DNA of 64,000 bases, taken from positions 3,092,345 to 3,156,344 of the forward strand of contig CM082579.2 of NCBI GenBank assembly GCA_040954595.2, written 5' to 3'. The stretch comes from Balanoglossus misakiensis. Taxonomy: Eukaryota > Animalia > Hemichordata. The notes below the pieces were generated by a model. The model saw only the letters and a list, made by a program, of their open reading frames with translations, had not been told where the DNA came from and did no database searches. Positions within the stretch are counted from its first letter, which is position 1; each line of letters begins with the position of its first letter. Shown piece after piece: positions 1-63,365 of the stretch. The translations under genes and the position numbers were made by a program.

Positions 1-1817
1 GAAAATACGAGTCCCGCGAGAGCTTTTCGGGTGGTGTCTCTGCAGAGCGTGGATTCTGCGCCAAAGAACTGGTAAACAGAATCTAAGTTTCTCTTCAGTG
101 TCGGAGTGTCCAGAACGTCCAGTGTCGCCACAATACTCGGCCAGACTGACGAGGCGAGGTCTTCAAGAATCCCTTCCACGGCCGTCTCAACTTTACGCGA
201 GACCGTGTTGATGATGAAGTTGCGAATTTCGTGACAGAATGCGTGTAGTTTGAGGAATTTTTTAGTTCGCGGAATCGTCCCACCATATTTATTGGTGACG
301 TCGCGATGCAGCAGAACACGATCATACGCGATGATTTCCTGTTCCTTGAGTTTTATTTTGGTGATCTCGTCGCTTACAGGCAGCACGGCTTCACGTATGA
401 CGCCCATTATCTTGTCAGCTGTGCCGTCCACCTCTCGCAGAAGGTCGCTGAATAACCCGTTCTCCGAGCTCCTGGTGGCCTCTAACGCTTTACTCATCTC
501 TTCGTCTTCTTTCTCTATGCTCTCCTGGCTACCCGAAAATGAACAGTAGCACCTTGAATGACACTCTCGTAAAATTCGCGTCGCAGACAGCACAAGGCTG
601 TTCAAGTGGTCGCTCAAGAAACTCACCAGACTTCCTCTGAAAGTCTCGAAGTCTCTCAAGAACACGTTGTTTTCGGTGTCCATGTTTGCTTTCTTGGCAT
701 TGTTTACCTCTCTGGTGGACATCGAGTGGTAGGTCTCTTTGCCGGAGCGGGCATCCAGAAGTGAGAACTCGTGCAGCTGCGCGCGCACATCAGAAGCCTT
801 CAAGTTGTCAACGTATGGCCCACGTATGGCATCCTCCTCGTCCGATTCGTCGTCACTACCCCTGTCCATAATGCTCGCCCTCCTCCCAGCGTCAACTTTG
901 TTGCACACGTATATTAGTCGTGCTTCGGGGCACTTGTCTTTGAAAAACTGAATACTGGCTCTATCCTGTAAAATGAAGAAGAAAACTTAGAATTCGTGGC
1001 CAAGTTCTCAAATGGTTGCACTCTCGTGTTATGCCCCTGATCTATGAGAAAATTTACGAATTAGGAATCAAATAACTTCGCAAGTTCTTGTGTACTACCT
1101 TCTCGAACCGATGGTCAAATACTGCACTTTTCATATAAATATAGCCATTGCAGTGTCTATGTGTGCTTTAACCTGCTGATCTACATGATTGTAATGTTAA
1201 CTTACCGTCGGCCTCAGACTATTATTACCATCAATGACGTAAATTAAGACTGGCAAGTTTCTTTCTAGAGCAAATCTGTCGACAACCTGGTCTAATATCT
1301 TATTCTCACTTCTGCCGGGTGAGTCGACGATCTGAACCCCGCACTGCAAAAAGGGGTGGTTCACTCCGACTTCTACAATTTGGCTGACCAGTTCTTCATT
1401 CTCCCGGTCTTCGCTCTTCAGGACCACTAACTGCCTTAAACTCTCCGAGCTTGTCTGCGTAGAGCCGTCGGCGTCGACGAGACGGTTGTACGGCTCTTCC
1501 GAGTATTTGATGCAAACGACGCGTGAGGTGCATGTTCTGTCGGACACCGGAACGACTCGGCGGTCGGTACTCAACAGCGCATTGATCAGTGAACTCTTGC
1601 CGCAGTTCCGCTCGCCAATAACAGCGACAACGGACATCTGTTCGAGCAGATCCTTGATTTCTGCTTCTTCGGTCTGGCTGATGAGCTTGGCTGCGACAGG
1701 CGCGCTCAGTAGTCGTTCGATCTCCCTCTCCAAGTCTGCAGTGCTGCTTATGAGTTCGTAGATTTTTCGTGTCTTTTCCTTGTGGCCGAGAAACGTTTTG
1801 TCCACTACGGCGGCCAT
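1..1817 (-). CDS. DSTYK-like dynamin-family GTPase fusion, paralog A (3'-partial; exon 1 1817-1206, exon 2 965 to window edge)
   Basis: Exon 1 encodes G1 GERNCGKSS, G2 CTSR, G3 DSPG and YVIDG. GT donor at 1205 and AG acceptor before 965. Exon 2 reads DRASIQFFKDKCPEARLIYVCNKVD (G4) followed by an acidic loop, closely matching paralogs D and E. The kinase part lies outside the window. Confidence 0.85.
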
Positions 1818-2415
1818 GTTGATTGTACCAACCGTCCAGGTTCGACAGTGAGGCCTATTTCACCAGGATGTTATCGTGTGGGGCAATGAAAATACGCGGA
1901 AATGTAAATAAAAGTTCTCAGGGGGTGCTACGTCGTTATTTATCAAATTAAAAATAGCTTCAGCGTCTACAATTGGAGCAAGGAAATATTAGTATGAACC
2001 AATCGAGCTTTACTTTATTGTGACCCCGTGCAGTAGTTCAAATATTTGCACTACAATATTCGTTTTTTATAATTTTATCAATCAACTCCTAAGCTGATGA
2101 TTTATGGCAAACGGGCTCTGTCCGATGCGGAAACTACAGCATGTACGATAAAAAAAATGATTTTCCAAAATATTCAAAATGGTTTATGCATGAAATTGAT
2201 CCTCTTTAAAAAAACACAAGGCTTACCCAGGCTGACTAGGGAAGTAAACGATGGGTACTAGTGTGGAAGTATTGGGCAAAGTCTTTCCTACCTCGGACAG
2301 TTGGAGATCAGAGTGAACACCTTCGCGAGAGAGCGCCCTCACAAATGCGGATTGACAGGTTTGCATACATGCTACGTCAGCTCTTAGCTGAGTGTACAGA
2401 TAGGGTACAAGGACG

Positions 2416-2425
2416 GGGAATTCCC
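2416..2425. promoter_or_regulatory. Palindromic NF-kappaB-like site GGGAATTCCC in the divergent intergenic region between paralogs A and B
   Basis: Exact match to the GGGRNNYYCC consensus, about 600 bp upstream of the A start codon and about 320 bp upstream of the B start codon. Motif match only. Confidence 0.35.
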
Positions 2426-2741
2426 TGGTCTGTTTGTTCCTGGTTACATGTCTCGACACGATCTCCAGCTGAAGGGTCACTCCGGCTACACCCCCTCCCG
2501 TAAATGGTCACAGAACTCCAGGGACAACCGAGGCATCTGATCAAAATTAGCCGAGTTGATCCGGCGAGACAGGACAAAGTCCTAATATGGCCGCTTTTCG
2601 AGGGCGAGTCGACTGACACAATACCTGTGCCTAGGGAGGCTCGTTCGAAGCAACCTCGATGAACGTCGCGTCGTTGTGTTCGGGACCGAGTCTCAAATCC
2701 AGCGAAGCACAGAAAACACCGAAGCGGCCAAATCAGACGCC

Positions 2742-5700
2742 ATGGCTAAAGCGAAGACCAAATTTAGAAGACACGGTAAAGTTTCTGCTGTATAAGTAGA
2801 ATGACCAAGACTACAAACTTCAAAACAACCGCAATCGTTGCAGCATTTAGCCTGGTTATTCCTTTCCACTTGGCTTGCAGACTAGACTAGGCTTCCATAG
2901 CAGAACTTTGCTTATGACTATAGTTGGAATTTTGCAGATCATATAGAGCGTCATTCGTGACAATATTTTTTTCGTAATGGTATTACAGAAGGTAGGCGAA
3001 AGTGACATTGTGGAATTTTTTGCATAATACAGTAACGAAGCTATATCTTTTTCATTCCAGATCAATTATCACAATTTCCTGATGACAACCTAGTCAGCAT
3101 AGGCCCCGATGACCTTGACGAGTTTCGCGCGAAGTTCGAAGAGTTTCAGTCGTTTAAAGAGACCTTGAGAACGGCGTACAAGACCACTAATGCGTGTTTT
3201 GAAGCAATCGTGAAGTCGGTGGCCGAGGGCAAACGGAGAGAACTTGCCCTCTCTCTTCTAGGGAATGAAGACAGGGCGGCTATAAATCGCGTTCTGTCCC
3301 AGGATGCCACGATTCTTATCCTGGGCCAAACGAACTGTGGCAAGAGTTCGCTGGCAAATGAACTGCTGGGAGGGAGGTACCTCCCCACTTCAGAAATACC
3401 CTGCACATCCAGGATTGTAAACCTCCGGTACAGCGAGTCCGGCGAGTACGTTCGAATCGTGAACAACAAGAACGAGGAAATACAGCGACACGACCTGGGT
3501 CACCGCGAGAGGATTTCGAAGGAGTACATTGTCATTCGCGGGGAGGAACGCCAGCAACTGGAGGCCGTTCAGAATGTCGTTGAAATCGGTCTCAAAAACC
3601 CTCTGCTGAAGTCCGGTGTCAGGTTGGTCGATGCTCCTGGGTTGAGTGAAAACAATGCCCTTGACAGAGTTGTACAAGAATGCGTCGATGGAGTGCTGCA
3701 GCTCATTATTTACGTTATCGACGGTAACTATGGCATTCGACTTGAGGTAAGCAACAGGTGGTAGAGTTACAAATTACAAGATTGCAAAATATTACATGTA
3801 GGTGAATATGGATACCTTATTATTTGCTGATTCGGTCCTCTTTCTCTAATGGCAGGATTGTAGGATTCTGGGATCCCTCTACGATGTCGCACCCGAGCTG
3901 TCCATCTTCTTCGTATGTAATAAAATAGAAATGAGCCAGAAGGCAAATGCGATGGACCAGGGCTCCGATGAAAGCAGCGACGATGGAGAAGACGATAGGC
4001 GGATGACTGAGAAGAAGGAACGCGTCTTCCGCGATCTGGTCGACTTTGGCTTCATCAAGAGCCGAGAAACCTCCGGGAGATGCAAGTGCTTCCACGCCAT
4101 ATCAACCCGAGAAATACGAAAATCGCGGAAGTCTGGGAACATTGCCTACAGCACGTACGGGGTCCAGTTTAAGCAGATGAAGAAAGACTTCCTGTACTTT
4201 GCCGGGAGCATGCTGAAGGCTCACCTTTCTCATGCAACGGGTCGACTGCTCCAAGCGCAGAAGCATTGCTTCGATTTCTTCGTAGCCGCGGCTCTACGGT
4301 CGGAGGCGCACGACAGCAACAAGCACAGTGAAATCCGCCAAACCATCGAAGAACTAAAGAACAAACAGTCCCAGCTCTGCAAGGACTCCAAGTCTCTGCT
4401 GAAGGAAAGGAAGGGCACTATTCGAGATTTGCTGAAGAAGTCGCTGCTCGGCGAGTGGACGAATATCTTGAAGACGGCCAGAGACATGGAGTATTCCTCG
4501 GTTAAAGTGGGAGAGACTGTAAGCAGAGGTGAATTAATTAACCAGCTAGAGCATCAAGTGCAGCGGCTGGTGGTGATGAAAGTCACCAACGAAGTGCTGG
4601 AAAAGATCAACCCGGAAATCGAGGCAATGGTCACCTTGATGACCGACGAAGCCAGAAATGCTCTGCGTGAGGTGACGAGCCAACCCATCCTTTCCGGCCT
4701 CAAGGACGTCCTCACAAACGCCAGTATCTCTGCATCGGCGCCGACGCTGTCCAAACTACTCAGCAAAACCAACCTATCTTGGCACGTCGCACAAAACTGG
4801 CTGACCCATCGTCTGGAACATATCACACGATCACTGGCCGCGTCGACCGTCGGGGTCAAAGTGGACGCCGCCTGGAGGGAACAGGTCGCCAGGGAAACGC
4901 TGAAGCGCCTGAGTGCTGACGCGATGACAGAAGCGGTTTGCAGTGAGATCTCGGTGAAAATCGACCAGTTTTATCAAAACTTCGAACGAGAGCTTGACCG
5001 AGTGAGTCTTCTGAACGACTTCAGCCAGGCGCAAGATGACGTCATGAAGGAAGCTGCTAAGAAAATGTTCGCGCTTCATTGTCGGGCAATGGGCGAAAGT
5101 GAATGCCTGATGAACGATATCAAATATGGCGGCGAACTAAAACCGGAAGACACAAATAAAGGCGGAAAAAGAACATTGCTCTACAAGTACAATGACTGGA
5201 AAGGCGAATTTAAGGAAGTATTCGTCAGAAAGGCCAAGAAGGAGGCTGTGAATGCCAGAACATCTTTGGATGTTTTATATGCTATTGCAAAGTATGTACC
5301 GATTTTTTTTCAAGTTTCCATTGTTAGCTTTAAGTGCTCTGGTAACATTTATTGAGATTAATAGCTGTGGCGTTACACATTATTGCCTTAGTGGAAGGAT
5401 AATTGAGATGTCGTGCAGCATGAAAGAGTGGACGCAAGATTTATCTGTGGTGTTGAAATCCTGTCGAATTTATACTTAAGCGTTTTCCACTTAGTTTATG
5501 AACATGTGAAATGATGCGACGGTGAAATCAATGATTATTTTTCTTGCCTCCTTTTCAGACACTTGCCGCCTTGTAAAAACATATTGCCCGTATTGTCCGT
5601 CGTAGGCATCAGTTCACACGAAAGAGTGGAGGTGGGCGTAGTTGTACCGCGACGAAAAAGTGACCTGTGGACCGAGCTTACTTCAGGCTCCTTCAGATCA

Positions 5701-7266
5701 ACTCCGAGACGAGACCGCATCGCCAGAGACATCGCTGAGGGGTGTCATTTCTTGTCGATGCAGGGGTTTCCTGTGCCAGATCTACGTGTTACCAACATCA
5801 TCGTGAGTATATACTGCAAGGTCCAATTCAAGGTCCACGAGCTGCAACATTCGTCCTGATAAATTAACCCCCCTTTTATAGTATTTTAATCTTCATTTTG
5901 AATTTTATCATTATTTAATATTTTATGTGACTTTCACTTTCAGCTCAATAAATTAGATGATGGCTTTTGCACAGAAATAAACATCCTAAAACCAAGAGAC
6001 GATGCTGTGCCTTACCCGGACGGCAAGCCTCCGTTCCACATCGCCCCAGAAAGATATGACCAGAAGGATGACGGCAGTGGTCGGATTGACGCCGATAAAA
6101 GTGATGTGTATGCCTTTGGGGTCTTACTGTGGTGGTTGTTGATAGGAGAGTATAGCAGGCCACTGTACGCCGACACCGCTCAAAGTATCCGAGCGGCCGT
6201 TGTACAGCGCGGGGAGACGCCGATCAGCCGCAGCACGACTCCGATCGAAGACCGGTACAATCGCCTGGAAGAACTCCTCGAGGATTGCTGGCGTGATCCC
6301 TGCGATCGGCCACCTTGGAGACAAGTCTGCGAGAGGTTGACCCCCGGGGGAGTCACGGTCAAGAGTGCAAGCCGGAACAGGAGAGTCAGAAGTGCGAGCC
6401 CTGGTAAGAGAGCCAAGGGTGCGAGTCTGGACGAGAAAGTCGACAGTGCGATTCCGAGCGTCAGAGTCAGAAGTGCCAGCCCACGGGGGAAAGCCACGAG
6501 TGCGAGTGGCATTGCTGTAGACGAGAAAGTCAAGAGTCCTAGCGGGAAAGTCGCAAGTGCGAGTCCAAGTAGGGAAGTCGGCAGTGCTATTCCGCCGAGC
6601 GTCAGAATTAGGAGTGCCAGTCCCCGGGGGAAAGTCTCGAGTGCGAGTGGTATTGCTGCGGACGAGAAAGTCAAGAGTCCTAGCGGGAAAGTCGCAAGTG
6701 CGAGTCCAAGTAGGGAAGTCGGCAGTGCTATTCCGCCGAGCGTCAGAATTAGGAGTGCCAGTCCCCGGGGGAAAGTCTCGAGTGCGAGTGGTATTGCTGC
6801 AGACGAGAAAGTCAAGAGTCCTAGCGGGAAAGTCGCAAGTGCGAGTCCAAGTAGGGAAGTTGGCAGTGCGATTCCGCCGAACGTCAGAGTCAGAAGTGCC
6901 AGTCCTCGGGGGAAAGTCACGACTGCGAGTGGTATTGCTGCAGACGAGAAAGTCAAGAGTCCTGGCGTGAAAGTCGCGAGTGCGAGTCCAAGTGGGGGAG
7001 TTAAGAAGGCGATTCCTGGTGGTAACCGCGCCAGTCCCACCAGACAAGTCAGACATGTGGGCGCGAGTCCAACCGAGGTAGCCAGGAGTATAAGCGATAT
7101 TGAGTTTGACTTAAAGCCGGAAAGCGTCAGTAAAGCCACCGCTGCTGCTAAGGTCACGACAACATCGCCAGAGGGGGGAGACCAGGGCAACAGAACGCAT
7201 TCTTCCAACGATGACGTGGACACACAGAAAAAAGCGATACGTACGATAAGAGAAACACACGTGTAG
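2742..7266 (+). CDS. DSTYK-like GTPase-pseudokinase, paralog B, about 1240 aa with Ser/Pro/Lys-rich repeat tail (exons 2742-2775, 3061-3746, 3856-5291, 5559-5802, 5944-7266)
   Basis: GT-AG introns join in frame. GTPase motifs: G1 GQTNCGKSS, G2 CTSR, G3 DAPG, G4 CNKIE. Kinase fold: RDRIARDIAEGCHFL, VPDLRVTN in place of HRDxKxxN, no DFG (EINILKP), HIAPE, KSDVYAFGVLLW and CW..DP.DRP. The short first exon is less certain. Confidence 0.85.
6460..7023 (+). repeat. Coding tandem repeat, 4 x 141 bp (47 aa)
   Basis: Units start at 6460, 6601, 6742 and 6883. Consensus VRIRSASPRGKVSSASGIAADEKVKSPSGKVASASPSREVGSAIPPS. Units 2 and 3 are nearly identical. Confidence 0.95.
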
Positions 7267-8629
7267 AGCAAAGATGAAAATGAACAAAAATGAACTCTGG
7301 TGCACAGACGACCGTGACATGTTTTTGAAAAGCACAACATTAAATCGTGTGCTATAGGATGTAAAACAAGAAACGGCAGTAGATACACAGAATAATAATA
7401 CTGAAATAGCGAAAAGTTACAGTTCTTCTAAATGTACATTCAAAATGGACCCCACGACATCGACGAGATTATACCGTTTTGTTATTCAAATACACATACA
7501 GCAAACATATCGGTAATAATTCAACATACAAATGTCACTGATTCGGTATGCAAAGTAAAATAAGTACAATGATTTATTAAAGTCTGGCATTTTGCCATGT
7601 TAGATAAGGACGTCGACGCTATGCTGCATAGTTCTCGCGACTATCTAATCTATCTATCTGTCATATGCTACGCATATTTTCCCTTGTTTATTGTTACTAG
7701 AGTAGACTTGTCCCCTTGCAATAGAATCTGTCTGAAAATTTATTTTGTCTTAAGTTACCAAACTGTTTTGGTTAGCAGAGTCGGAATGTTATTTTACAGG
7801 CGAATCAATCAAAATAAAAAATATTATGCACATAATGAAAGAAATCCGAGTGCTTTATCTCGTCGGTGTGTCTCTGTGTGTTTGCCGGAATTACGCAAAA
7901 ACAAGGAAATATACAAATAAATTAGCTGAAGACCAAATGAAGAATCAATGTTGCATTTTTACATGTTCAAGGGGGATTTCAATTGTTGACAAAATTTCAG
8001 AATGACTCATCTGTCTTCCTCAAAGAGATAAACAAACAATTCTAATTCCAGGGATGAGTTGCCCTTTTATGAAAATTGAATACAAGACACGTCTGAATTA
8101 TTTTCACTGATTTTGGTTCCTCTTTTAAGTTGCGACAAAGTCCACTATTGACAAATGTCCGGTATCTGTCAGCTAGGGACGCACCTTGTATTGTCAACTG
8201 GTCATTGTCCACCAAATCTCGCACGTTGCAGCGATATAAGCTCTTACTATAATTTTATTGTCATTTTTAAAGGGCGTAACTTTCTTAGTGAAAGTCCATA
8301 AAGAAGCAGCAACACAATTTACAAACTTGTGACCCGGGAACCTCCCCCCCCCCCCCCCAAAAAAAAAAAAAAAATCTCTCATAGGCCACTTCGTGGAATT
8401 CAAAAGTTTTCTGCAGTGATAAAAAGCTTCGATAAAGGCTGATAAAAGCACAACTGATACGTGTATGCACATGCAGAGTGATGTCGCTGAGCATGCGCGG
8501 TGAACGTGTCAACCTTTAGGCCTATATATGCCTGTATACCAATGCAAATAGAAGACGTGGTTGTTGACAACGGGGCGGGGGACTTTACCATTACCTGATT
8601 ACAGGGCTACTAACATGCGGAAATAACTC

Positions 8630-8639
8630 GGGGATTTCC
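8630..8639 (+). promoter_or_regulatory. NF-kappaB-like site GGGGATTTCC about 200 bp upstream of paralog C
   Basis: Matches GGGRNWYYCC. A second consensus match, GGGAACCTCC, lies at 8336-8345 and a GC box (GGGGCGGGG) at about 8572-8580. Motif matches only. Confidence 0.35.
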
Positions 8640-8840
8640 AATTTTAAGCTTAGTCATTTCCAAACAAAGGGACCTCGTCAGCGATTGGCTCATGTGATGT
8701 CTTTCTGAGCGCATGATCGGAACTGTTCCAGATTATTTTGTCTGCTTTGAGGACGTCGGCTGCGTGTTAACCATTACCCTGGCCAGAGGAGGACCCAGAC
8801 CGATTGTTTAAAGGTACAGCTTATATTACCAATCACAAAC

Positions 8841-11800
8841 ATGGCGGCGCTTGGATTGAGGGGTACCGCAGACACGGACGTGTTGAAGGATGCCTTCTCG
8901 GCCTACTCGCGCGATTCTCACCGGCTGCAAAAGCTGAAAGAGAGCACCATAAAATGTTACGAAGACATCCAGCGCACACTCTCGAAAAACCTGCAGAGGG
9001 AGGTTAAGGAAAGCGGGCTGGCACTGCTCGATCGCAACGACCAGCGAACCATCGACGCCGTCAGCCAGAAACCAAGCCTGATCTTCGTCGGCCAGACCAA
9101 CTCCGGTAAGAGTTCCCTGATCAACCTAATACTGGGCGGGACCTACGTGACGGCCAGAGAAACGCCGTGCACGGCCAGGCTGGTGAAGTTGGTGAGCGCC
9201 GGGGGCGGGCGACAGACGGCCAAGGTCGTGTCAGAGGACGGCACGGTGCAAATGCAGATGGAATTAAAGAAAAGGAAGATACCGCAAGAGATAATCGAGT
9301 TGAGATCAGACAGACGCGACAAGACGTCGGTCAATTCGTACGTAGTAGCTCAGGTCAATAATGAGTTCATAGACAGTGGTCTTGAGATCATTGACTCGCC
9401 CGGTCTGCAGGAAAACGAAGTCATGGATGAAATGGTGCTCGGAGAGCTCAGCAAAATTGTACCTTTTGTAGTCTATGTTCTAGATGGCAAGAATCAACTA
9501 ACCAACCAGGTGAGTTAAGCGCGACAGCACTTGTCGGTATAATAATAATAAGAAATGATAATGACGGACTATGCATAATTTACAGGAGCAGTTTTTTACT
9601 TTTAAAATGACGTATGTGGATGGATGGATGGATGGATGAATGGATGGGTGGATGTGTTTGTTTTGAGAGAGGGGGGAGAGAGAACGCTATGTTATTCTCT
9701 AAAAACTTGAAACTTGAATCTTTCAGGACAGACATGACATCAGGAGAATACAGCAGCGAACAAACGCAGAAATCTTTTACGTGGTCACAAAGGTAGACAA
9801 GGATGAAGACGAGGACGACGACGAAGAAGACGAGGATGAGAAGGAAGTCGTCTTTGAAAAGAAGAAGCGCGCTTATGATAGTCTCGTCAGGGAGGGGTTT
9901 CTACCCGTCGGGAGAAAGATGCAGGATTGTATGCAGTTTCACGGCATTTCAAACTGGAGAGTTAAAGAGTACAGACAGAGGAAGGACGCGGCTTTGAAAC
10001 CGTTCATGGACGATTACGATCGATTTCGGAAGTGCCTCTGCCTGTTCGTAACGGAGCGGCTGGGCGAAATCGTCGAGAGCGCCAGCACCGCTCTCCTGGC
10101 GTCACATTCCCAATGCCTCGACTTCTTCATCGGGAGGGCCAACCAGTCCAAGAGCAAGCCGAAGGAGCTGGGTGGGCTGCTTGATGGCTGCTGCGACAAA
10201 GAGAACAGAATTTACCTTCGAATGGTCAGCAAGGTCAACAATCGGCGCGCGCAACTCGAGCAGAGCATCGCCAAGTGCATAGCCAACTGCAAGGCAGAGA
10301 TCACCCAGTCCGCCAAGTCGTTCAAGTTCAGGGACATAGACATCCCGGCAAACGGGATGGTCAAGAATGACGAAATGGTCAAGCGTTGCACCGAGCAAAT
10401 CGAGAGCCTGGTCATTTCCGTGCTGAGCACAAATATTTCCGCCACCCTGAGCAGAGAGTTCCAAGACGAAGACAGCATCATGGGAGACATAGCCAAGACG
10501 GCGGAAGAGCTGGAGAAATTCGACCCCGACGCAGACTTCTCCATCGCGAAGATCCTCAGTCAGTGCACCATGTCGTCGTACAGGGTGGAAAGCGCCATCT
10601 CCCTGGGAAAGGCAACTTGGGGGCTGGCCATGAGGAAGATGTTCCGGAAGACGCTCAAAGCCTTCCGTAACCCAGTAGCGGCGCTGACGGGGCAACAGCG
10701 AGTGGACGACAGGTGGAAGGTGGCCGCGTCGGACAGCGCACTAGAGAGGGTCAACGCCAAATCCGTCGCCGAAAGCGTGGTCAATCAGGGCAAGGACCAC
10801 CTGTACAGGTGCCACATCAGATTCGTCGAAGCAGCCGCGGACCTGAAGCGAGTGCTGAAGATAGCCTCCCAGACTGGCGACGAGGAAAGAGCCAAGATCC
10901 GGAAAATTGCCCCAAGGCTCGCCCGCCTGGAGTTGGCCACTCATTCAATCCGGGATACCCGTTTCTATGGTATTCCCCGAATAGGCAAGCTTATAGGGAA
11001 AGGCAGCCAGGGCGATGTCCATGAGTGTGGCGAGTACATAATGAGAGGGGAACCATGCGTCGCGAAAATCGTCGACATGGAACGGAAAATAAATGACCCC
11101 GACGATCTAGCATTGGAAGTGCACTATTCAAGGTAACAATTGCACAACAAAACAACTATCAACTGTGATTTTCTTTTATTCCAAACCAGGGTTATTCACA
11201 AAATGTTCCAGTTTGAATAATTAACACAGCCTGCATGTTTACAGTTAAAGTGAAAGTGAAAGTAGAAGAAATGCAGCTTATTCAGCATTTTGTTTTACTC
11301 CCTACAGTATGCTATAATACCAATCTAAACCATTCTCGTTTTATTACAGAAAACTGGGTCAGAATGATAGAATACTTCCCCTATACGCAAGCATAGAGTT
11401 TGACGGATATCTGTTCTTGGTGACACCGCAGATGAAATGGGACCTCATGAGAGCGCTGCCTCATTACAAGAAACTGATCGACAGACTGCAAATTGCCATA
11501 GAAGTTGCAAAAGCTATACGTTTCCTCCACAGCGAGGGGATAGTCCACAGGGACATCAAGACGGAGAACGTACTGGTGAGTACGGCCACTGCTTTATCAC
11601 AGGTCAAAGTTCGTTCACGGTGCGCGCGCATGCCATGCGCCAGCATAGGAAAGTTTGAGCGAGTACTTCAGAGTAAGTGACGGGCATATGAAAAAATAGA
11701 CATTTGCGATTACAGCATTATCGCGTTTCTAACGCTATGCAAACACGGTACATTGCTCAAACCAAAAGTAATGGTCAAACCCATTAGACTTATTGGCACT

Positions 11801-12415
11801 TGAATCGATTTACAGACTTGGTGCAAGGGTCACGCAATCTGCCATCACTGTGAATATTTTCCATTTTTGGAAGAAAAAAAATATTTCAGTCTGCCTATGA
11901 CCAGATGTTTGTCTATTTAATCGAGAAGTAAATATTAATGTCCATATTTGACCAGTTGAATGATGTATACATCATTTACTATATTTTTAATGTATGTTTT
12001 TTTGTTATAGCTTAGCGCTTCTGGTGAGGTCAAGATTGCAGACTTCGGACTCTGCAAAGCAGAGGGCTTGATAACCGACTCCATTGTTGGTGCTCCCATA
12101 GCGATGCCCCCAGAGGTCATCCGAGGCGAGGCGCACGACAAATCCATCGACGTGTACGCCTTCGGAATCCTGCTGTGGTTTTTATGCGAGGGAACGGCCT
12201 CCTGCCCGAGGAACTACGCCCAGATAAGACGGCCCGTGGATCTGATGTTCCTGTGTATGGACGGCCATCGCCCAGAGTGCCAGCCTGACTTTGACAAATC
12301 CTGTTGGGCGCTGATGGAGAAGTGTTGGGACGGGGACAGTACCCGCAGACCAAACTTCGAACAAATCGTCGCGGAGCTCATCAAAATTAAATATAAAATA
12401 GCCGAAAGAAAATAA
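8841..12415 (+). CDS. DSTYK-like (dual serine/threonine and tyrosine protein kinase-like) GTPase-kinase, paralog C, catalytically intact, about 901 aa (exons 8841-9509, 9727-11132, 11350-11575, 12011-12415)
   Basis: GTPase motifs: G1 GQTNSGKSS, G2 CTAR, G3 DSPG, G4 TKVD. Kinase motifs: Gly-loop IGKGSQGDV, beta3 VAK, LALEVHY (alphaC), HRDIKTEN, DFGLCKAEG..DSIVGAPIAMPPE, DVYAFGILLWFLCEG. The activation segment resembles DSTYK (recalled [25 protein letters not shown]). Confidence 0.92.
11247..11263 (+). promoter_or_regulatory. IRF-E/ISRE-like element AAAGTGAAAGTGAAAGT in intron 2 of paralog C
   Basis: Tandem AAGTGA/GAAAGT hexamers match the IRF-1/2 binding consensus. Motif match only. Confidence 0.3.
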
Positions 12416-14315
12416 TTGGTTTAATGTCGAGGCGTTTGAGTCTCAGAGGCAAAATTGCCAAGTCGGGGTACCGTCGCAAGTTATCGAGCCGAACTACCCT
12501 CTCTCATGTCTCTGCGGAGCACATTGTGAAATTTCAGATCTGCCCAAAAGTGACGTTTCAAACCAGCATCAATCCATTCATTAACAGTACTTTGTGTTTC
12601 TTTATAACCCGGTGAAGGTCAAGATGTAACCTTGTATTTTCTTCTATTGGTATTCGAAAATGTGTATGAACATTTTACTGTTTTACACAAGATAGTTTGC
12701 ATGTTCTTAGTCGGTTGCCATGGCCTTGTGACGAAACAGTCTCCGTCCATGTGTGTACATGGTTCCAAACTCTTCCAGTTATTCCAATACCCACTAATTT
12801 GAAGAGATTGTTCGGGAAATGTCGCCACAGCACCTGGCATTTTTGGGGTTGTCATGAAATTTGCGTTCTCACCCGGAAGGTGTCTATAGCATTCCATTGT
12901 TTTGGCAACCGCCGGTTTTGACTGGTGACGCACACCCGCCATATGGTATAAAGGGCAAATATTTAGCACGTAGGGTGTGTCGCCTGTCGAGCACCTCTCT
13001 ATGTTTACGCGGCCCATGGCAAAATATAGGGTTAAACCGGGAATATTTAATTATTCGGAGATCGTTTGAAACAGCCGAATATCCACGTCTGCAGTATAAT
13101 ACTCTGCACCACCTGTTCGAATCGTTGGGAAGCATCTTCACTGTAGGCATGTCTATTCACAATATTACCAAAACACAATATCTAGTACTGACCATAGCTG
13201 TTAAACCTTCTGTTTGATAGACAGATGAACATTCCTGTCTATTCATTGTAAATAAATATATACGAATTGTACATGTACATTTCTTTGGACAAATACGTGA
13301 TGCAATATTTAAAATTCAGATATATGTAATGCAAATAAATGAAGAATTTCGAAAAATCGCACTAACACTTCTCGTGTATTCACATCGTCTGTTTTATTGT
13401 ATTGCGCTAGTATATATATTCTGCCAGATTTTCACTTCAACAAACAAGGTTTATGGTACATCACCCCCAATCAAAGTTAGCAACACCAACATGGCGCTTC
13501 ACATGTGAGTGACCCCGATGACATTGCCCGTAGTCATTACGCATACAGCAAGCAAATTATGGAGCGGCCATTTTGTCATCTATCATTGTAGGCCCAGAAT
13601 GCCTCGACGACCTATGTTCATTTGCAGCACGAAGAACCTTGTGATACTAACATTTACATTTGAATGCATTTTGCCGAATTTTTGTAAGCTTGGCCTGTTT
13701 CACAACACTAGTGACAATTCATTGCGTAACTTGCACACATGGCGAAGAGAGTCTTACAGTGACATAATCGTCATGATTTTCTGGCCGAGTGAGCGGAATA
13801 TATTAAGCAGCCATATTTTGCGCGCACACATTCTCCTTTTTGTCATTTATGAGGTCTGTGTTTGCTGGTCGCCCTGTTCCTGTCAGACAGACAGATGGAA
13901 TGCATTGTTCAAACGACCACAAATAACATCAAGAGGTTACCTTTGATCTCGTTACCTGCAGCTGCCCTGGGCTTATTGTTTCGCGTTCTCAGCGACTTTG
14001 AGTGTGAATTGACCAATCTATGTGAGCAATCATGTGCTGTGTATATGGGAGTATACGCATTAACTTGCAGTCCACCTAATATACACGTAGGCCTGTGTAT
14101 TATATCCCCAAGCCATCGACCAGCTTACAAACAGGAACCTTGGTCAAAAGTGAAAATTGTAAACTTATTCTAAAAATTACATACGAGACAAGTATACACT
14201 GTTTGTCTGCAGTGTGTATGGGGGTCTCAATTTGCGGTCTCTGGAATACAATCGAAGTGAATTTAAACTGAAACTTTATGCATCTGCGGGTGGTTTTAAC
14301 AGTTTGTAAACACGC

Positions 14316-17300
14316 CTAAGATATTCTCTGCAATTCCTGTATGATGTCTGAAACCGTGATGGTTTTGTGTCTACTGAGACACCTGTCAATCAAACTCGAA
14401 ACTCTGTCGTCAACACGGCCAGCTGGCTTGCTCCATCGAAGCGACGACGTCACCGTATTCTCCGTCGTCTTGCCACCGTGCAGCCAAACCAGCAGCTCCC
14501 CTAGATGCTGAATGTCCAAATTCGTCGCCTGTCCCCGAAGAACTTCAAACCGACCCTTGCAAGTGTTGATCGCAGCCCTCTTGTTCTGCTTCAGCTGAAA
14601 TACAAAGAAGAAAGGATTCACATTCCAGACTATCTGTCCACGTGCATAAATGTGCTGAAAAGGCAGTATTTCACAAGCAGACCACAATATACAAATACTA
14701 GCGTGAGACTGTGACTTAATGCCCATAAAGACTTACCAGAATAGTATCTGCCTTGACGTTGTTGAAGATGAACCCGCTGGCATGGATGGTTTGCACCCCT
14801 TTGGCAACATCAAGAACAACTCTCAGCTTTTCCTTGGCCGATAGTTCAATATCGGGATTGTCCAACCTCGCCTCGGCTTTCTCGGTGACTATGTACAAAG
14901 TGTCGGGCTTGGGCAGCAACCAGCCGTATATTCCTATCAGATTTTCACTGCGTTTGCAGTTGCTGGAAAGATGATGAAAACATGTGAATCGGTCAGCAGA
15001 AAATAAGTGTTATCATCACATATTTCTATGTAGTCCAATGGTATGCCTGTCTGCCCCCCCCCCCTTTCTCTTGTTCAGTACCTTTCTCTTTATTTTTGTT
15101 TAAAATAAAACGATGGTACTTACTATGCATAATACAGTGCAGTGATGGATTGTTCCCACGCAACAGGGTCAGTCCTTGTGATACACCGTACAACGTATTG
15201 TCCGGGAGTATTAAAACCCCATCCTTTCTTATACTGATGAACACTGCAGTGTTGGCCCCGGCCAAGAATTTCTCCTTTTTGCAAGGATCCCCGGATGACA
15301 TCAAACTTCAGAGCGTGGTTCTGGATTTCCAGCTGGGCCAATTTCGACATGATTTTCGTTGTGGAGGCGCCGATCTGCTCTTTGATGTTTATCCGGACCT
15401 CGTGTTTGAAGAACTCCATGTGCTTGATGGATTTCTCGAACGCGTCGTGGTTTTCGTACATCTTGTTCTGGCAGGCGTGGATGATAGAGTCGGCCAGGCT
15501 GTCGGCATCCAGCCTGCCGGACAAGGTATCCGCAATCTCCTCGCGATGAGACAGTTGCCCACCCACCGTCTTGTACAGTTCAATGGCCACTTCAACCATC
15601 GGCAGTACCGCGAACGCCTGTTGCAGCTCTGCACCCAGATCCTCCCTCACCGCGGCCACCAGGGAATATATCAGATTTGTCAGACATTTACTGGTGTCCT
15701 CCTTGAAATCGGACTCGTACCCGATGAACTCGTAGATGGATTCCATGTTCCTCTTCAGTGTCGGGTTGTCTAAGGCCTCCATCGTGTCGATGACCCGGGG
15801 CCACATCAACGGCGCTACTTCGTCCTCCAGCAGATTCTCGACGTCCCTCTCGACTCGGCGGAACACGGTGTTGATGATGAAGTTGCGCAGTTCGTGGCAC
15901 AAAGCGTGCAATTTGAAGAACTTGTCTTCATCCGGTAGATCGGAACCGTACTTGGTGCGAACATCTCCGTGCGTCAGCAGAAAGTCGTACGCCCCCACTC
16001 TTTCGAGCTGCAGGTACGTGGCTTCATCCACAACCTCTTTCTTCACATCCCTGACAACTCTGCGGACAATCCCGCGGACCCTATCCAGATTATTGTTGAC
16101 CAGCTGCGAGAGATCGGCGTACAGGGCGTTCTCAGACTGGCGAGCGGACTTCATGATTTTGGCCAACTCCTCGTCTTCCCTCTCGATCATCTCTTGTTTC
16201 TGGGAAAAACAGTAAAAGCACCTGCCGTGGCATCTCATCAGGGAACCGATGGTGCTGGAGAGAGTCGTCTTCAGGTGCGCGTCCAGACAGTGCGATAACT
16301 TCTGGCTGAACTTCTGAAAGTTCAACACGAACGGGTCGTCGAGATCTCCGCGCTTCACCGCGTCCTTGACCGCCTTCACCGACAACGCGTGGAATCTGTC
16401 CATCGACCTGTCGTCATCTAGCAGTGAGTGGAAGCGGAGCTCTTCAAGAACTTTCTCCTGTTTGTTTCTGTCCATCGGCGATTCCGGTTCTTCGTCTGCG
16501 TCCAACTCATCTTCGGAAACATCATAGCGTTTCGCCTTTTTGTCGACGTCTACTTTACTGCAGATGTAGAACAACTTTGTTCCGGGACAGTGTTCTTTGA
16601 AGAACTGGATACTGGCGCGATCCTGTAATATATTGACAAAGTACTTATTTTAAATACCATGATTATGCGCCAACTTAGATCAAAATAGCCTCGGCATGTC
16701 AATAAACACCAAACATTTTGTAGCAAATAGAACAATCTACCGTCATGTTTGGCCTTAAATTAAATCGGGATAGAAGTTTTTTTTCGCAAAAGACGCGTTC
16801 AGATATTTTTCCAGACTAAGTAGTCCTCTGCCATGGACGTAAGAGAGAGACGACGGTATGGGTATAAGCTTACTTACCGCTGGTCGCAGACACATCTTAC
16901 CGTCGATGACATAAAGCAGAATCGGTGCAGACTTCTGTAGTACCAAACGATCCACGACCGTGTCCAGAGTTTTGTTTTCATTGCGCCCCGGCGAGTCCAC
17001 GAACTGAATGCCATACTCCAGCAAAGGGTAGTTCAGTCCGATCTCCACTGTTTGGCTGACGAGCGACGCGTCTTCTCGATCCGTGCCCTTCAGAGCGACC
17101 AATCGCTTCACGGCAACGCGGTCTTCCTTCTCGCTTGTTTTGCTTCCCTGTAGCAACCGCTTAGAGCCATCGATCTGGTGTCCGTCGGTGTCCAACAGAC
17201 ACAAGTAAGGCTCCCGTGAATAAGTCACCCGTACAACTCTCGACGTGCACGCCCGTTCCGACGCAGGAACGACGCGGCGGCCCAGTAGTTCATTAATGAG

Positions 17301-17531
17301 TGAGCTCTTGCCGGAGTTTCTTTCCCCAAACACCGCAATGACGGCTTTCTGGTCCAGTGTTTGGCGGATTTCCTGCTCTTCCCGAGCTGTGATAAGCTGA
17401 GCTGACACATCCTCGCCCAATAACCGACGTATTTCTGTCTCTAACTTTTTAGTCTGGCGAATGATTTCACGAACCCTCTTCAGGCGTTCTTCGTGTGTTT
17501 TCAAAGTGTTTGCCAGGTAGTTGTCCTCCAT
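14316..17531 (-). CDS. DSTYK-like GTPase-pseudokinase, paralog D, about 885 aa (exons 17531-16878, 16622-15124, 14962-14737, 14594-14316)
   Basis: GTPase motifs: G1 GERNSGKSS, G2 CTSR, G3 DSPG, G4 SKVD. Kinase fold: LGRGQHCSV, YVVR (beta3 K to R), IHASGFIFNNVKAD (HRD to FNN), INTCKGRFEVLRG (DFG lost, activation segment deleted). Splice phases are consistent and the joined frame is open. Confidence 0.88.
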
Positions 17532-18329
17532 ATTGGATTTGTGGATGACCTATGCTTTAAAACTGCAGACACGTAGCACACTATAGGCATACACTCAGAT
17601 TGCTTCCTGATTGGCGGCGCCCTATCGCTAGTTTCGAAACCATAGGCACGGCCCGATATGCATTGGTTTAAACTTACGTCACTAGCCCAAAATTCTCCTA
17701 AGGGTATCACATGATCAGGCTGTACTGTAGTACGTGCTTATCATATCAGGTTCCCGATGACATACACTAGATAACAAAACATTTCATGTAACGTGTAAAC
17801 AAAATAGGTACAGTCCCACTTTCTGTATTACTTTAGAAGTCAATATTACAATAGACAGCAAACTGTCTATGATATTACCATGGGGGTAGAAAGCGCAAAC
17901 TTTACTTCTTTAGTTCTTTGTATTTATTTTAATCATTGAATTTTAATCTTGAAGTTTTTTATTTTTCATCATCAATTCAATAATTACACAGATTAAATAT
18001 TAAATCTCCGACTCCATTCTGCATTTACTTCCGACTTCAACGTCATGAGTACGCTGTCACACTTTATCTCTTGAAGTACGTCTACGAGGAAGTATAGGTT
18101 CAGTAAAACAAAAAAAACCTTTACAGTTAGTTCCTGGTTGTGTCCAAGAATGTTATTGTGTTATAAAACTAAGTACATGTAAGCGCTGGTGTGTTTTTAA
18201 TGACTGCTTGAACAGTATGGATCACCTCAGTCCCTCCACACAGACTAGATATATGAATAATATCGCTTGGCAAGCCGTGACGTAGGCCAAGTTAGCACTG
18301 AACAAGCGACAGCGACCGATAGCACAAAA

Positions 18330-21300
18330 TCATCTATTAAAGAACGCCAAAGCCTGCAAACAATCACTCAATTCTCCTTTTATTTGGCTTATTGTCATTG
18401 CATTCGGACTTCTGAGACATCTCTCGGTCAAGCTTGAGATCATGTCAGTCTCCCATCCCGTCGGTCTGTTGACGCGATTGGCCGAAGTTGTTCTTTCCTT
18501 CGAGGCCTTGTCTCCGTGTAGCCATAGCAGCAGATTGCCGAATTGGTAAATATCATTGGCCATTACATGCCCTCCGAGAATCACGTATTTCCCTTTGCAT
18601 GTGTTTATCACGGCTCTTTTGTCATCCATTATCTGCAAAAGGACAATATATACTTAATTGGTGACTTTTGGATGTGCAAAACCCGACACGTTCATGGTGA
18701 TCTGAACTGCGTAACGGGCGCAAAGGAATTCGACTCACCAAAACATTCTTTGGTTCCAGATTATTGAAGATGAATCCGCTGGAATGGATAGCGTCCAATC
18801 CATTGGCAACGTCCAGGGAAACTGACAGTTTCTCGTGGTCCGAAAGAGTGTGCAGCGCAGAATCCAATCTGTCCTTGGCCTTCTCCACGATGACGTCAAC
18901 CGCGTTTGTGTGACGAAACAGCCACCCATGCACCACGAGGAGATTGCTGCTTTTGTCGCAGATGCTGTAGGTGATGTGAAACCAGTAAATATGTGCTTGT
19001 GAAAGTAATTTTTGAAGCTATGATTCCATTCATGGTGCTAATGTAATTCTAAAAGAGGTTGTAAAATACAAATTTGAGTATATACTTACAAGGCATGATA
19101 GAGAGCGGCGATGGATTGTTCCCATAAAGTCTGATCAGTGTTTGTGATGGAGCGAATGACACGGTGGTCTCGCTTCTTGGATCTTTCTCCTTTCATGCAT
19201 TCGTGAATGCTGCAGTGCTGACCTTTGTAGAGCACTTGGCCCCTGCTCAAAGTCTTCCATTTGCGCTCAAACTTCAGAGCGTAATTCTGCACTTCCAGCT
19301 GGGCCAGATCGGAGATGATCTTCGTCGCCTTGGCCATGAACTCGTCGTTCATGCTCAGACAGATCTCCGCTTTGAAGGTTTCCATGCGCTGGATGGATTT
19401 TTCGAACAGGTCGTGGTTTTCGCGCATCTTCCTCTGACACGCGGTTGTGATGCTTTCGGTCAGCTCGTCGACGTCCAACATGGCGACCAGCATCTCAGCT
19501 GCGCTCTCGACCTGGGCCGTCTCCATACCATATGATGTGTAAGCTATACTCACAACTGACGGCAGATCGTACGTTCGCTGGAGTGCGAGGCTCAGATCCT
19601 CTCTCACTGAAGCTATCAAAGAATACATCAAACCCACCAAAGACCTACGCGTGGTTTCCTTGTAATCAGATTGGTATCCGAAGAACTGGTAGACCGACTC
19701 CATGCTTCTTTTCAGAATAGGGTTTTCCAAGGCACCTATCGTGTCAAGCACTTTGGGCCATAAAACGGGCGCTACGTCGTTCTCCAGGAAAGTGTCGATC
19801 TCCGAATCCAAACGGTTGATGACGCAGTTGATGATGTAGCTTCGTATTACCTGGCAGACTGCATGCATCGTGAGAAATTCCTCGTTGTGAAGTAAGTCTG
19901 GTGCAATGGACGAGCTTATTTCACTGTACCACAGAAGAAAATCGTGCGCCTTTGCCCTGTTGGTCAACGAGAAGTGCCTGGCCTCTTGGCTCAACTTTCG
20001 CGTCATATCTTTCACAACCTCGTCAACGATGTCGCGGATTCTTGCCTTGTTTTCCAAAACCAGTTTCGTCATATCATCGAAGAGAGCCATCTCAGACCGT
20101 CTCGCTGATGTCAGCATTCTCGTCATTTCCACGGTTTCATGGTCGATACTCTGCTGTTTCTGCGACAGGAGGTAGAACAGCCGACAGTGGCAACCCGACA
20201 GTGTGCTGCGAACGCGCTGCAGCGATTTGTCGATGTGGACACCCAAGGCTTCCGACAGGCTCTTTTTGAATTTCATGAAGTTTTCGACGAAATCGTTATC
20301 GCGACAATCCCTGCGTGCTTTTCTGATTTCCTTCAGTGACAATCCATGCAGTCTTGTTCTTTTGTTAAGAAGACCGAAGTAAGAAAGATCTTGCTTCACT
20401 CTAGCCAATTTGTCGAGGACAGCGGCAGGAGCACTTTCATCGTCACCGCTTTCATCCTCATCGTCTGAGGCCTGATCATGTTCTGCTGCCTTTTGATCGA
20501 TGTCCACTTTGTTGCAAACATATATGTGCTCAGCTCCGCGACAGCTTTCTTTGAATTGGTTGATACTGGCACGGTCCTGGAAAAAAATATGCCGCATTAA
20601 AACGGAAATCAAGAGAAACCATATACTTTTCAATGTGTGAGGCCTAAATTCTCTTACAGACCCACCCCCTCTCACTGGCCACTAGCACGTAAGAAGTCAG
20701 CAGGGCGTGCATTACATGTACTGAACCATTGTTAAGAGTTTGACTCACCTCTGGACGGACTCCATTATTTCCATCAATCACGTATATCAAGACGGCTATC
20801 GCCTGCTCCTTCGCCATTTTCTCCACGACTTCGTTCAGCTTCTGATTCTCATTTTTACCCGGCGAGTCGATGAATTCAATTCCATTCTTTAGGAACGTGT
20901 CGTCCAGGCCAATCTCCACGGCTTCGCTGACAAGTGCGTCGTCGTGTCTTTCTTCATCGCTCAGATCGACAAGGCGATTCACATGTCCAGAATCGTCAGT
21001 CCCGCAGACCTCCATTTCATGTTTGGTGGTGCCATCGCAGTTGAGGAGGCGTATGTACGGGCGTTCTGAATATTTTATCCGGACAACCCTGCATGTGCAC
21101 GGCAGTTCTGAGACAGGGACAATGTTTTGACCCAGCAGCTCGTTAATTAGTGAACTCTTCCCCGCATTTCTCTCCCCGAACACAGCGATGGTCAATTTCT
21201 GCTCCAAGATCTCTTCTATTGATTGTTTTTCACTGTCTGAGACAAGGGTAGTTGATAGGTCTTTCCCCAGCGACGTTGACAATTTTTTCTCCAGGTCTTC

Positions 21301-21381
21301 AGTTTGTCTTAAGATGGTCTGTAGTCTGTCTAGGCGCAGGGTTCGATCCTGCTGTATCTGTTCCAAGGGATCTCTTTCCAT
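18330..21381 (-). CDS. DSTYK-like GTPase-pseudokinase, paralog E, about 882 aa (exons 21381-20749, 20576-19090, 18964-18739, 18632-18330)
   Basis: GTPase motifs: G1 GERNAGKSS, G2 CTCR, G3 DSPG, G4 NKVD. Kinase fold: LYKGQHCSI, RVIR, IHSSGFIFNNLEPKN, INTCKGKY. Collinear with paralog D, with identical intron positions. Confidence 0.88.
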
Positions 21382-24416: not shown

Positions 24417-25164
24417 GATTGCTAAGATTTGTCAGTCATCAGTGATGTCGCATATGCTTGCTTGCAGACGCAGCTTTCAGTTACTATGGACACGAATCTC
24501 CTGTTGTCCTGGCAATGAATGCGACCTGTAATTTTATACCACAAGAATGTCTGCATAAAAGACAATTCACACTAAATTCGTGCTGTAGACGTTCATGGAG
24601 AGTTCATGACATACCTGGTGCACATACGATTAGTCTGAAAGCATACGTTATTATGCAAAACAACACAAGTGAAGTACATTGCAACCACCAGCAACTATTC
24701 CGATGTCAAATCATACTCGCTCCGAATTTCGACTATATGCAGTAAGCTCTAGTTATCTGATCAGAGCTGATCATCTAGTGATACAACTACCAGATTATAC
24801 GTACCAAGCAGAATTAGAATTCGGGGTTTCGGTCTCAGATCATAGCATTTTGGTGTCACTGCACTGTATCATGTATGCACCTTTGTTTTGTAAGCGCCCT
24901 CACACACTTCTCTGTGCATAATATTGAGCCCTTAGCTTACTGAATTAACTATCTCTAAATGGAGTTAAAACTCAATATATTTTCGCTATACCAACGGTGG
25001 AATTCTGTTTGAAAAGTTTTCTTCCCCTCTATACGATCGATTGGTCAAAAGTTAGATCACAGTATAGATGTTTTGATGTTAGAATCCTCACTGATCTTTT
25101 CGTTATATAAATTCGTCACATAGGGAGTCAATTTTGAGTGAAGAAACGGGAACAAATAAACAAG

Positions 25165-60264: not shown

Positions 60265-63365
<3,101 letters not shown>

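Follow-up and report, generated by a model that had tools for sequence, protein, structure and literature searches.

A stretch of 64,000 nucleotides from the acorn worm Balanoglossus misakiensis (contig CM082579.2, positions 3,092,345 to 3,156,344; hereafter the window) carries a cluster of five intact paralogs, A to E, in which a dynamin-like GTPase and a helical region are joined, wherever the gene is complete, to a C-terminal kinase fold. The cluster is a variant of the paired GTPases of the bacterial dynamin-like protein (BDLP)/mitofusin type, and its genes belong to three subfamilies that arose by old duplications: a C-type with a kinase, a B-type with a pseudokinase, and an A/D/E-type with a pseudokinase of another kind. 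Their relative DSTYK, judged from its sequence, is a pseudo-dynamin kinase that has kept the GTPase module in degenerate form. We see an even chance that the cluster encodes a heteromeric, kinase-coupled membrane-tethering or fusion GTPase.

Splice-aware gene models were built from the splice sites and place the five paralogs in the orientations -, +, +, - and - (coordinates are positions in the window).

Gene A: 1..1817, minus strand; exons 1817-1206 and 965-<1; GTPase and helical region, cut by the window edge; A/D/E subfamily.
Gene B: 2742..7266, plus strand; exons 2742-2775 (inferred, 34 nt), 3061-3746, 3856-5291, 5559-5802 and 5944-7266; 1240 aa; GTPase, helical region, B-type pseudokinase and Ser/Ala/Pro-rich tail.
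Gene C: 8841..12415, plus strand; exons 8841-9509, 9727-11132, 11350-11575 and 12011-12415; 901 aa; GTPase, BDLP-like neck and trunk, basic amphipathic stretch at the predicted trunk tip, and kinase with VAK/HRD/DFG.
Gene D: 14316..17531, minus strand; exons 17531-16878, 16622-15124, 14962-14737 and 14594-14316; 885 aa; GTPase, helical region with an acidic tip, and A/D/E-type pseudokinase.
Gene E: 18330..21381, minus strand; exons 21381-20749, 20576-19090, 18964-18739 and 18632-18330; 882 aa; architecture as in D.

GT-AG boundaries were found at 14 of 14 introns, and none of the five frames contains an internal stop. Three introns are common to B, C, D and E, at identical alignment columns and in phases 0, 2 and 0, and A has the first of them; the exon encoding the middle of the kinase is 244 nt long in B, compared with 226 nt in C, D and E. 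The GTPase exons of all five genes match the Dynamin_N profile (PF00350) above its cut-off (E 1.5e-15 to 4e-21), and each gene has all four GTPase motifs (G1 GxxNxGKSS, G2 CTxR, G3 D[S/A]PG and G4 [N/T/S]Kx[D/E]). An earlier reading of the window from its letters alone (the sequence-only reading) had described such a cluster, with G1-G4, homologous introns and a 226-nt exon in C, D and E, and both the splice-aware models and the motif check confirm it. Pairwise identity among A-E is low (21-47%); paralogs of different subfamilies are 21-26% identical overall and 15-16% identical in their stalks. The ortholog of A in Ptychodera flava (P0015) has a pseudokinase at its C-terminal end.

VAK, HRDIKTEN and DFG occur together only in C, so that the description of C as the sole holder of VAK/HRD/DFG beside degenerate B, D and E was borne out, with refinements: B lacks DFG, retains the Asp and Asn of the catalytic loop (VPDLRVTN), and has a conserved PYPxGxxPFH-type loop. 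In D and E, the HRD Asp and DFG are gone, as is most of the activation segment, and Arg stands at the Lys position of VAIK. From these motifs the C kinase is predicted to be active, and this is no more than a prediction, because its P+1 loop has Ala where the canonical DSTYKs compared have the Thr of GTP. The kinases of B, D and E are likely dead; some residual activity in B is conceivable, given its catalytic Asp and Asn.

The lost catalytic motifs of B, D and E, and the near-complete loss of the activation segment in D and E, could mark these genes as decaying DSTYK-like kinase duplicates. We consider this explanation very improbable, and the frames, shared motifs and constraint largely refute it. 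Frames are open and splice sites intact, and G1 is preserved in nearly all family members outside canonical DSTYK (counts below). The degenerate motifs of the D/E-type and the B-type recur in orthologs from Ptychodera, Glandiceps and Saccoglossus, which are equally degenerate; both pseudokinase groups have a shorter (I/L)Nxx(K/R)-type stretch in place of DFG, and each has its own motifs, common to members from sea anemone through acorn worm. The pseudokinases of D and E are under constraint: the D kinase domain is as conserved as the stalk (46% and 43% identity, respectively, to the Saccoglossus relative P0009), and the D/E kinase comparison yields dN = 0.44, dS = 2.45 and dN/dS of ∼0.18 from simple counting, at a dS close to saturation. 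Synonymous sites between the paralogs are near or at saturation in general; they are saturated in most A/D/E comparisons, where D/E was the one pair with finite values for each of the three main domains.

Gene B ends in a low-complexity basic tail that contains a tandem repeat.

B tail repeat: 6454..7001, plus strand; in-frame 141-bp tandem repeat, 3.9 copies, 93% match.

The 47-aa unit is rich in Ser, Ala, Pro and Lys and has many SP motifs. The Glandiceps ortholog of B also has a long low-complexity tail, which differs from that of B. The SP-rich tail of B is a possible candidate for phosphorylation by C.

The GTPase module is predicted to adopt the BDLP fold. Searched against PDB sequences, the GTPase exon of C matched Nostoc BDLP best (E 3e-10), followed by the Campylobacter jejuni dynamin-like protein (DLP) and yeast Fzo1; the matches of a PDB search with the family profile were filled by kinases. 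Fold prediction, confined to C among B, C, D and E, was carried out with AlphaFold2 on the Ptychodera ortholog (predicted local distance difference test score, pLDDT, 81; predicted template-modeling score, pTM, 0.77). With this model, Foldseek placed Nostoc BDLP (2J69 and 2J68) at matches 1 and 2, ahead of all kinases (E 4e-16, 715 columns, TM scores of 0.33/0.41, with a high root-mean-square deviation of 11.7). The sequence match and the structural match together support the dynamin-like fold named in the sequence-only reading, and specifically the BDLP/mitofusin class. At the predicted trunk tip, C-type proteins carry a net charge of +3 to +7 with a hydrophobic moment of 0.47-0.74 (8 of 8 tested), whereas D, together with the nearest two relatives tested (P0011 and P0009), has a net charge of -3 to -6.

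Relatives were sought by a profile search over 1.84 billion representative proteins, from which the best 150 matches were listed. Among 161 sequences examined, 98 reached at least 40 bits on a profile of the non-kinase region, and the 69 near-complete ones formed a tree in which a canonical DSTYK clade of 25 stands apart from 44 others. HRD and DxG are both present in 13 of these 44; among the remaining 31 are three models that are truncated or broken (A, P0012 and P0028). The nearest relatives of A-E are hemichordate RefSeq proteins called “DSTYK-like,” and C is 73% identical to one from P. flava, with Glandiceps and Saccoglossus relatives next. The GTPase-intact members that we could name come from hemichordates, amphioxus, Lingula, two nemerteans, Macrostomum, Nematostella and Actinia, and none of these named members, which are part of the matches, is from a vertebrate.

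With the kinase excluded from the alignment, a tree of 34 named rows (LG+C20, quick search) recovers the C-type, B-type and A/D/E-type groups with Shimodaira-Hasegawa-like approximate likelihood ratio test (SH-aLRT) supports of 95, 96 and 91. Approximately unbiased (AU) tests run per species, which are independent of the group labels, rejected a single clade for the three Lingula genes (p = 5.0e-5) and for the three Branchiostoma genes (p = 7.7e-5), ruling out recent species-specific duplication in both at p<1e-4. As read from the trees, the split among C, B and A/D/E types is older than the protostome-deuterostome split, and that between the B and A/D/E types is probably older than cnidarians.

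Amphioxus, Lingula and the nemertean Tubulanus each yielded one gene of each type. All three types lie on one 880-kb scaffold in Lingula (XP_013414054, 081 and 082; the C and A/D/E types have consecutive accessions) and on one 8.96-Mb scaffold in Branchiostoma belcheri (XP_019629705, 833/834 and 835; the B and A/D/E types are consecutive). The P. flava orthologs of A, C, D and E are XP_070553789, 790, 793 and 794, on one contig and in that order, and this species has additional C-type and A/D/E-type genes. In the sea anemone Actinia tenebrosa, a single 1885-aa model (P0168, LOC116307815) consists of a B-type unit followed by an A/D/E-type unit. Copy number is expanded in hemichordates. The claim of one active kinase among pseudokinases holds within the window, where C alone qualifies, and is probably an effect of the window edge: Ptychodera, Glandiceps and Saccoglossus each have at least three C-type genes on one contig. 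Because other acorn worms carry several C-type genes per contig, the cluster probably extends to the left with more than one active-type kinase.

In RefSeq these invertebrate genes are named after DSTYK, the gene of human congenital kidney and urinary-tract anomalies (CAKUT) and of SPG23, and a notochord-vacuole gene in zebrafish. The sequence-only reading had set them beside DSTYK, described there as normally a single-copy gene; the tree and the G1 counts make them GTPase-intact sister subfamilies rather than extra copies of DSTYK, with DSTYK as the member whose GTPase is degenerate. A-E lie outside the 25-member canonical clade, keep G1-G4, and fall outside the clade-and-motif definition of canonical DSTYK, whose kinase is marked by GRGQYG, HRDIKLKN and DLG. 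Of 44 non-canonical members, 42 have the pattern GxxxxGK[ST], whereas it occurs in 1 of 25 canonical DSTYKs (the exception, P0058, looks chimeric); at the G1, G3 and G4 positions, caecilian DSTYK reads GQTCNVRCQ, VAPC and VPSF. The DSTYK GTPase is, on these motifs, likely inactive. Dead-looking kinases are found in two of the three sister subfamilies and not in DSTYK. The divergent members P0068, P0070, P0069 and P0128 have altered G2/G3 motifs (e.g., DLPA and DFPS), which suggests further partial GTPase loss inside expansions. Those canonical DSTYKs that were named come from sea cucumber, tunicate, scallop and vertebrates.

The homology between C and caecilian DSTYK runs end to end (28% identity overall, 41% in the kinase, 25% in the stalk and 20% in the G domain). 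A profile made from 15 canonical DSTYK N-termini alone gave scores of 66-94 bits for the G-domain regions of A-E and 32-111 bits for their helical regions, against maxima of -1.2 and 1.6, respectively, for reversed decoys, and the models of DSTYK and C have their predicted strands and helices in the same order. ESM Atlas look-alikes of DSTYK residues 10-600 were all Dynamin_N or mitofusin clusters, at scores of at most 0.81 that have the standing of a lead only. For the full-length DSTYK model, the top 50 rows from Foldseek and the top 50 from VIA-align were all kinases and hence uninformative for the N-terminus; the Pfam Dynamin_N profile matched 2 of 10 canonical DSTYKs, both below the cut-off.

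Vertebrate DSTYK is reported on late endosomes and lysosomes, whose fusion is promoted by its overexpression, in a paper that draws the N-terminus only as “non-catalytic regions” (PMC6981171). Zebrafish Dstyk is required for the fusion of carriers with the notochord vacuole; kinase activity is needed, and the study did not identify a fusion effector (PMC7012607). Two papers place DSTYK outside the RIP kinases (PMC9573974, PMC10492769).

Nostoc BDLP (2J68/2J69), C. jejuni DLP1/DLP2 (5OWV), B. subtilis DynA and mitofusin/Fzo1 have the layout of G domain, neck and trunk in common with the cluster proteins, and for them, as for this cluster, genes of unlike type lie next to each other. The majority of bacterial DLPs come from neighboring gene pairs and work as hetero-oligomers; the adjacent C. 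jejuni genes give a 2:2 complex in which only one subunit binds membrane and both active sites are needed (PMC6162298). The cluster proteins differ from this class in having a C-terminal kinase or pseudokinase and no paddle or transmembrane hairpin, and their genes are animal, intron-containing and of three subfamilies rather than two. Proteins from the stony corals Oculina, Acropora, Montipora and Pocillopora (P0173-P0176) combine Dynamin_N, a helical region and a kinase in the same order within ∼1000 aa, but are far more distant (130-230 bits on the C-type profile, versus 830-1130 for family members); they have an HRD kinase and, in the three tested, a hydrophobic hairpin with a hydropathy of 2.3-2.6. 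A transmembrane anchor was rejected for A-E on the same measure.

Three other systems resemble the cluster in one respect each. Roco proteins (LRRK1/2) also unite a GTPase and a kinase in one chain (Roc-COR definition, PMC10492769); no Roc or COR match was found on 18 exon translations of A-E at E≤0.1, and the fold is instead predicted to be that of BDLP. Mx, GBP and IRG genes form clusters of large GTPases; in A-E there is no GBP match, IIGP reaches 16-21 bits against a cut-off of 24, and the best PDB matches are BDLP, C. jejuni DLP and Fzo1. RIPK3-MLKL, invoked by the sequence-only reading, offers a kinase beside pseudokinases, but the N-terminus here is a GTPase and not the four-helix killer domain of MLKL. 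That analogy proved weak, and RIPK membership was rejected on this N-terminus and on the placement of DSTYK outside the RIP kinases (PMC9573974, PMC10492769).

In the model that we propose, the GTPase domains would bring the three subfamilies together on internal membranes, probably those of endolysosomes, and the complex would tether or fuse these membranes. The C-type subunit would bind membrane by the basic amphipathic helix at its trunk tip and would be the source of phosphorylation. Subunits of the B-type and the A/D/E-type would act as GTPase-competent partners with kinase folds serving as scaffolds or allosteric switches, roles modeled on the Campylobacter DLPs, where only one of the two binds membrane (PMC6162298). 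Canonical DSTYK would then be the reciprocal derivative, with the kinase retained and the GTPase degenerate. Heteromeric assembly, membrane binding, the compartment and the direction of phosphorylation are points that we only infer.

To model the assembly, we combined residues 12-636 of the P. flava C ortholog with the G domain (residues 52-330) of the D ortholog, in the presence of GTP and Mg. The complex scored 0.61, and the best control 0.00; 51 of 78 solved pairs attain the mark set for this score, as do 2 of 108 mismatched ones (39 of 65 and 2 of 126 for eukaryotes). Runs have at least 77% of contacts in common, with a partner pLDDT of at least 71. The predicted interface is formed by the two G domains: switch I of one partner meets the DG(N/K) loop and the G4 region of its counterpart, which is the usual arrangement in the dynamin superfamily. 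The co-assembly of paralogs suggested by the sequence-only reading is therefore plausible through the GTPase domains, with hetero- and homodimer not separated and a possible memory effect in the score.

Several points weigh against the heteromeric reading. Close cousins of a true partner passed in 10 of 12 calibration cases, so that the score cannot tell a hetero- from a homodimer; it may also reflect memory of solved BDLP/mitofusin G-domain dimers, and it was obtained with Ptychodera orthologs of the window proteins. A-E have no transmembrane, hydrophobic-paddle or hairpin segment (maximum 19-residue Kyte-Doolittle value 0.78-1.35), and the tip is not acidic in every A/D/E member (A, +1; E, 0; P0020, +8). 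The labels C, B and A/D/E were fixed after the 69-sequence tree had been seen, and the A/D/E group, at its support of 91, is one where long branches meet, as happens at two places in the 34-row tree. Adjacency in other species was inferred from accession order and shared scaffold length, not from coordinates. The joined Actinia model recalls the two-headed DynA of B. subtilis; it may be a true two-headed protein of that kind or two adjacent genes merged, with a Met at the join. The endolysosomal site may apply to the cluster proteins by analogy with DSTYK, from which it is carried over.

The remaining objections also favor a rival account in which the three subfamilies are independent, each a homo-oligomer with its own job, and their linkage is a relic left by ancient tandem duplication in genomes that rearrange slowly. 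Tubulanus has its three genes on as many contigs, so linkage is not obligate, and the several copies of each type in hemichordates fit a fixed 1:1:1 complex poorly. The low cross-subfamily identity given above, particularly in the stalks, is in keeping with independence as well, and the lineages with conserved linkage here keep much ancestral synteny. On the other hand, the near-consecutive accessions of Lingula, amphioxus and P. flava and the joined Actinia model always pair different subfamilies, A and B stand head to head with 924 bp between their starts, and the C/D hetero G-domain dimer was modeled confidently. We regard independence as unlikely, though a serious alternative to the heteromeric GTPase.

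Two candidate regulatory sites bear on a further possibility, a pathogen-inducible, cell-autonomous defence.

kappaB-consensus site: 2415..2425, no strand assigned; palindromic, in the 924-bp divergent intergenic region of A and B; candidate shared promoter element.
kappaB-consensus site: 8630..8639, plus strand; ∼200 bp upstream of the C ATG; candidate.

Such a defence, comparable to Mx/GBP/IRG or B. subtilis DynA, would attack or repair pathogen compartments and signal through the kinase, for example to STING; it is compatible with a heteromeric GTPase and would add a purpose to it. The upstream regions of A/B and C hold 2 kappaB sites in 3,722 bp against 0.18 expected, a count reached by 26 of 2000 shuffles (p∼0.013, tested post hoc); none was found upstream of D and E, and the 7 matches in the whole window are not above chance (reached by 9 of 100 shuffles). 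The hemichordate copy-number expansion also points this way, as do reports that human DSTYK phosphorylates STING at late endosomes (PMC11933320) and that at least one bacterial DLP is antiviral (PMC11789081). Retention of one gene of each type over phyla, however, resembles a stable machine more than an arms race, and we think a defence role doubtful. Of the immune role proposed by the sequence-only reading, the two post hoc sites and the STING report leave a hint, and the likeness to Mx/GBP/IRG did not carry over to the sequence.

Intron 2 of C contains a tandem IRF-like repeat (11247-11263, plus strand; AAAGTGAAAGTGAAAGT), a candidate match to the IRF consensus that would also favor defence. 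Matches to GAAANNGAAA are enriched window-wide but carry little weight, since 10 of 12 fall beyond the cluster and many are rich in A.

Elsewhere in the window, a long open frame ending in C2H2 zinc fingers directly follows gene E (22629-24431, minus strand). About 15 kb from the cluster, an exon at 36716-37126 (plus strand) matches a TRADD-like N-terminal domain (PF20694, E 1.2e-5, above cut-off). Three single-frame rhodopsin-family G-protein-coupled receptor genes (49483-50619, 51766-52782 and 57019-57945, minus strand) are apparently nested among the exons of a plus-strand tetratricopeptide-repeat gene (exon 47705-48082; similar frame 55039-55353), and the first exon of a TMEM144-like gene lies at 62644-62982 (minus strand).

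The proteins are already in databases under the automatic name “DSTYK-like” with Dynamin_N precomputed, and their domain content is thus on record. A full-text literature search, covering neither subscription journals, database family notes nor supplements (kinome or genome supplements may list the genes), returned no description of the family, its three subfamilies or a dynamin-like module in DSTYK. The family constitutes an animal branch of the dynamin superfamily with reciprocal losses: GTPase with kinase, GTPase with either of two types of pseudokinase, and pseudo-GTPase with kinase. As a tentative proposal, possible rather than probable, early animals had a fourth membrane-fusion dynamin machine, a three-subunit BDLP-like complex of a kinase and two pseudokinase switches, clustered from sea anemones to acorn worms and amphioxus, acting on endolysosomes or phagosomes and possibly controlled by NF-kappaB; human DSTYK would be its pseudo-dynamin kinase relative, whose “non-catalytic region” would have kept the ability to bind and tether the membranes of late endosomes. 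Members of the family occur in Nematostella and amphioxus, both of which can be worked with in the laboratory. DSTYK itself matters in zebrafish scoliosis and in human urinary-tract malformations and spastic paraplegia SPG23 (PMC10492769). Through the present analysis the N-terminal two thirds of the protein, so far unexplained, acquires a structural identity that can be tested, and for the fusion effector left unidentified in zebrafish (PMC7012607) an obvious candidate is a mitofusin-like module within that chain. If the proposal is true, membrane tethering by DSTYK would account for the vacuole-fusion defect of dstyk mutants.

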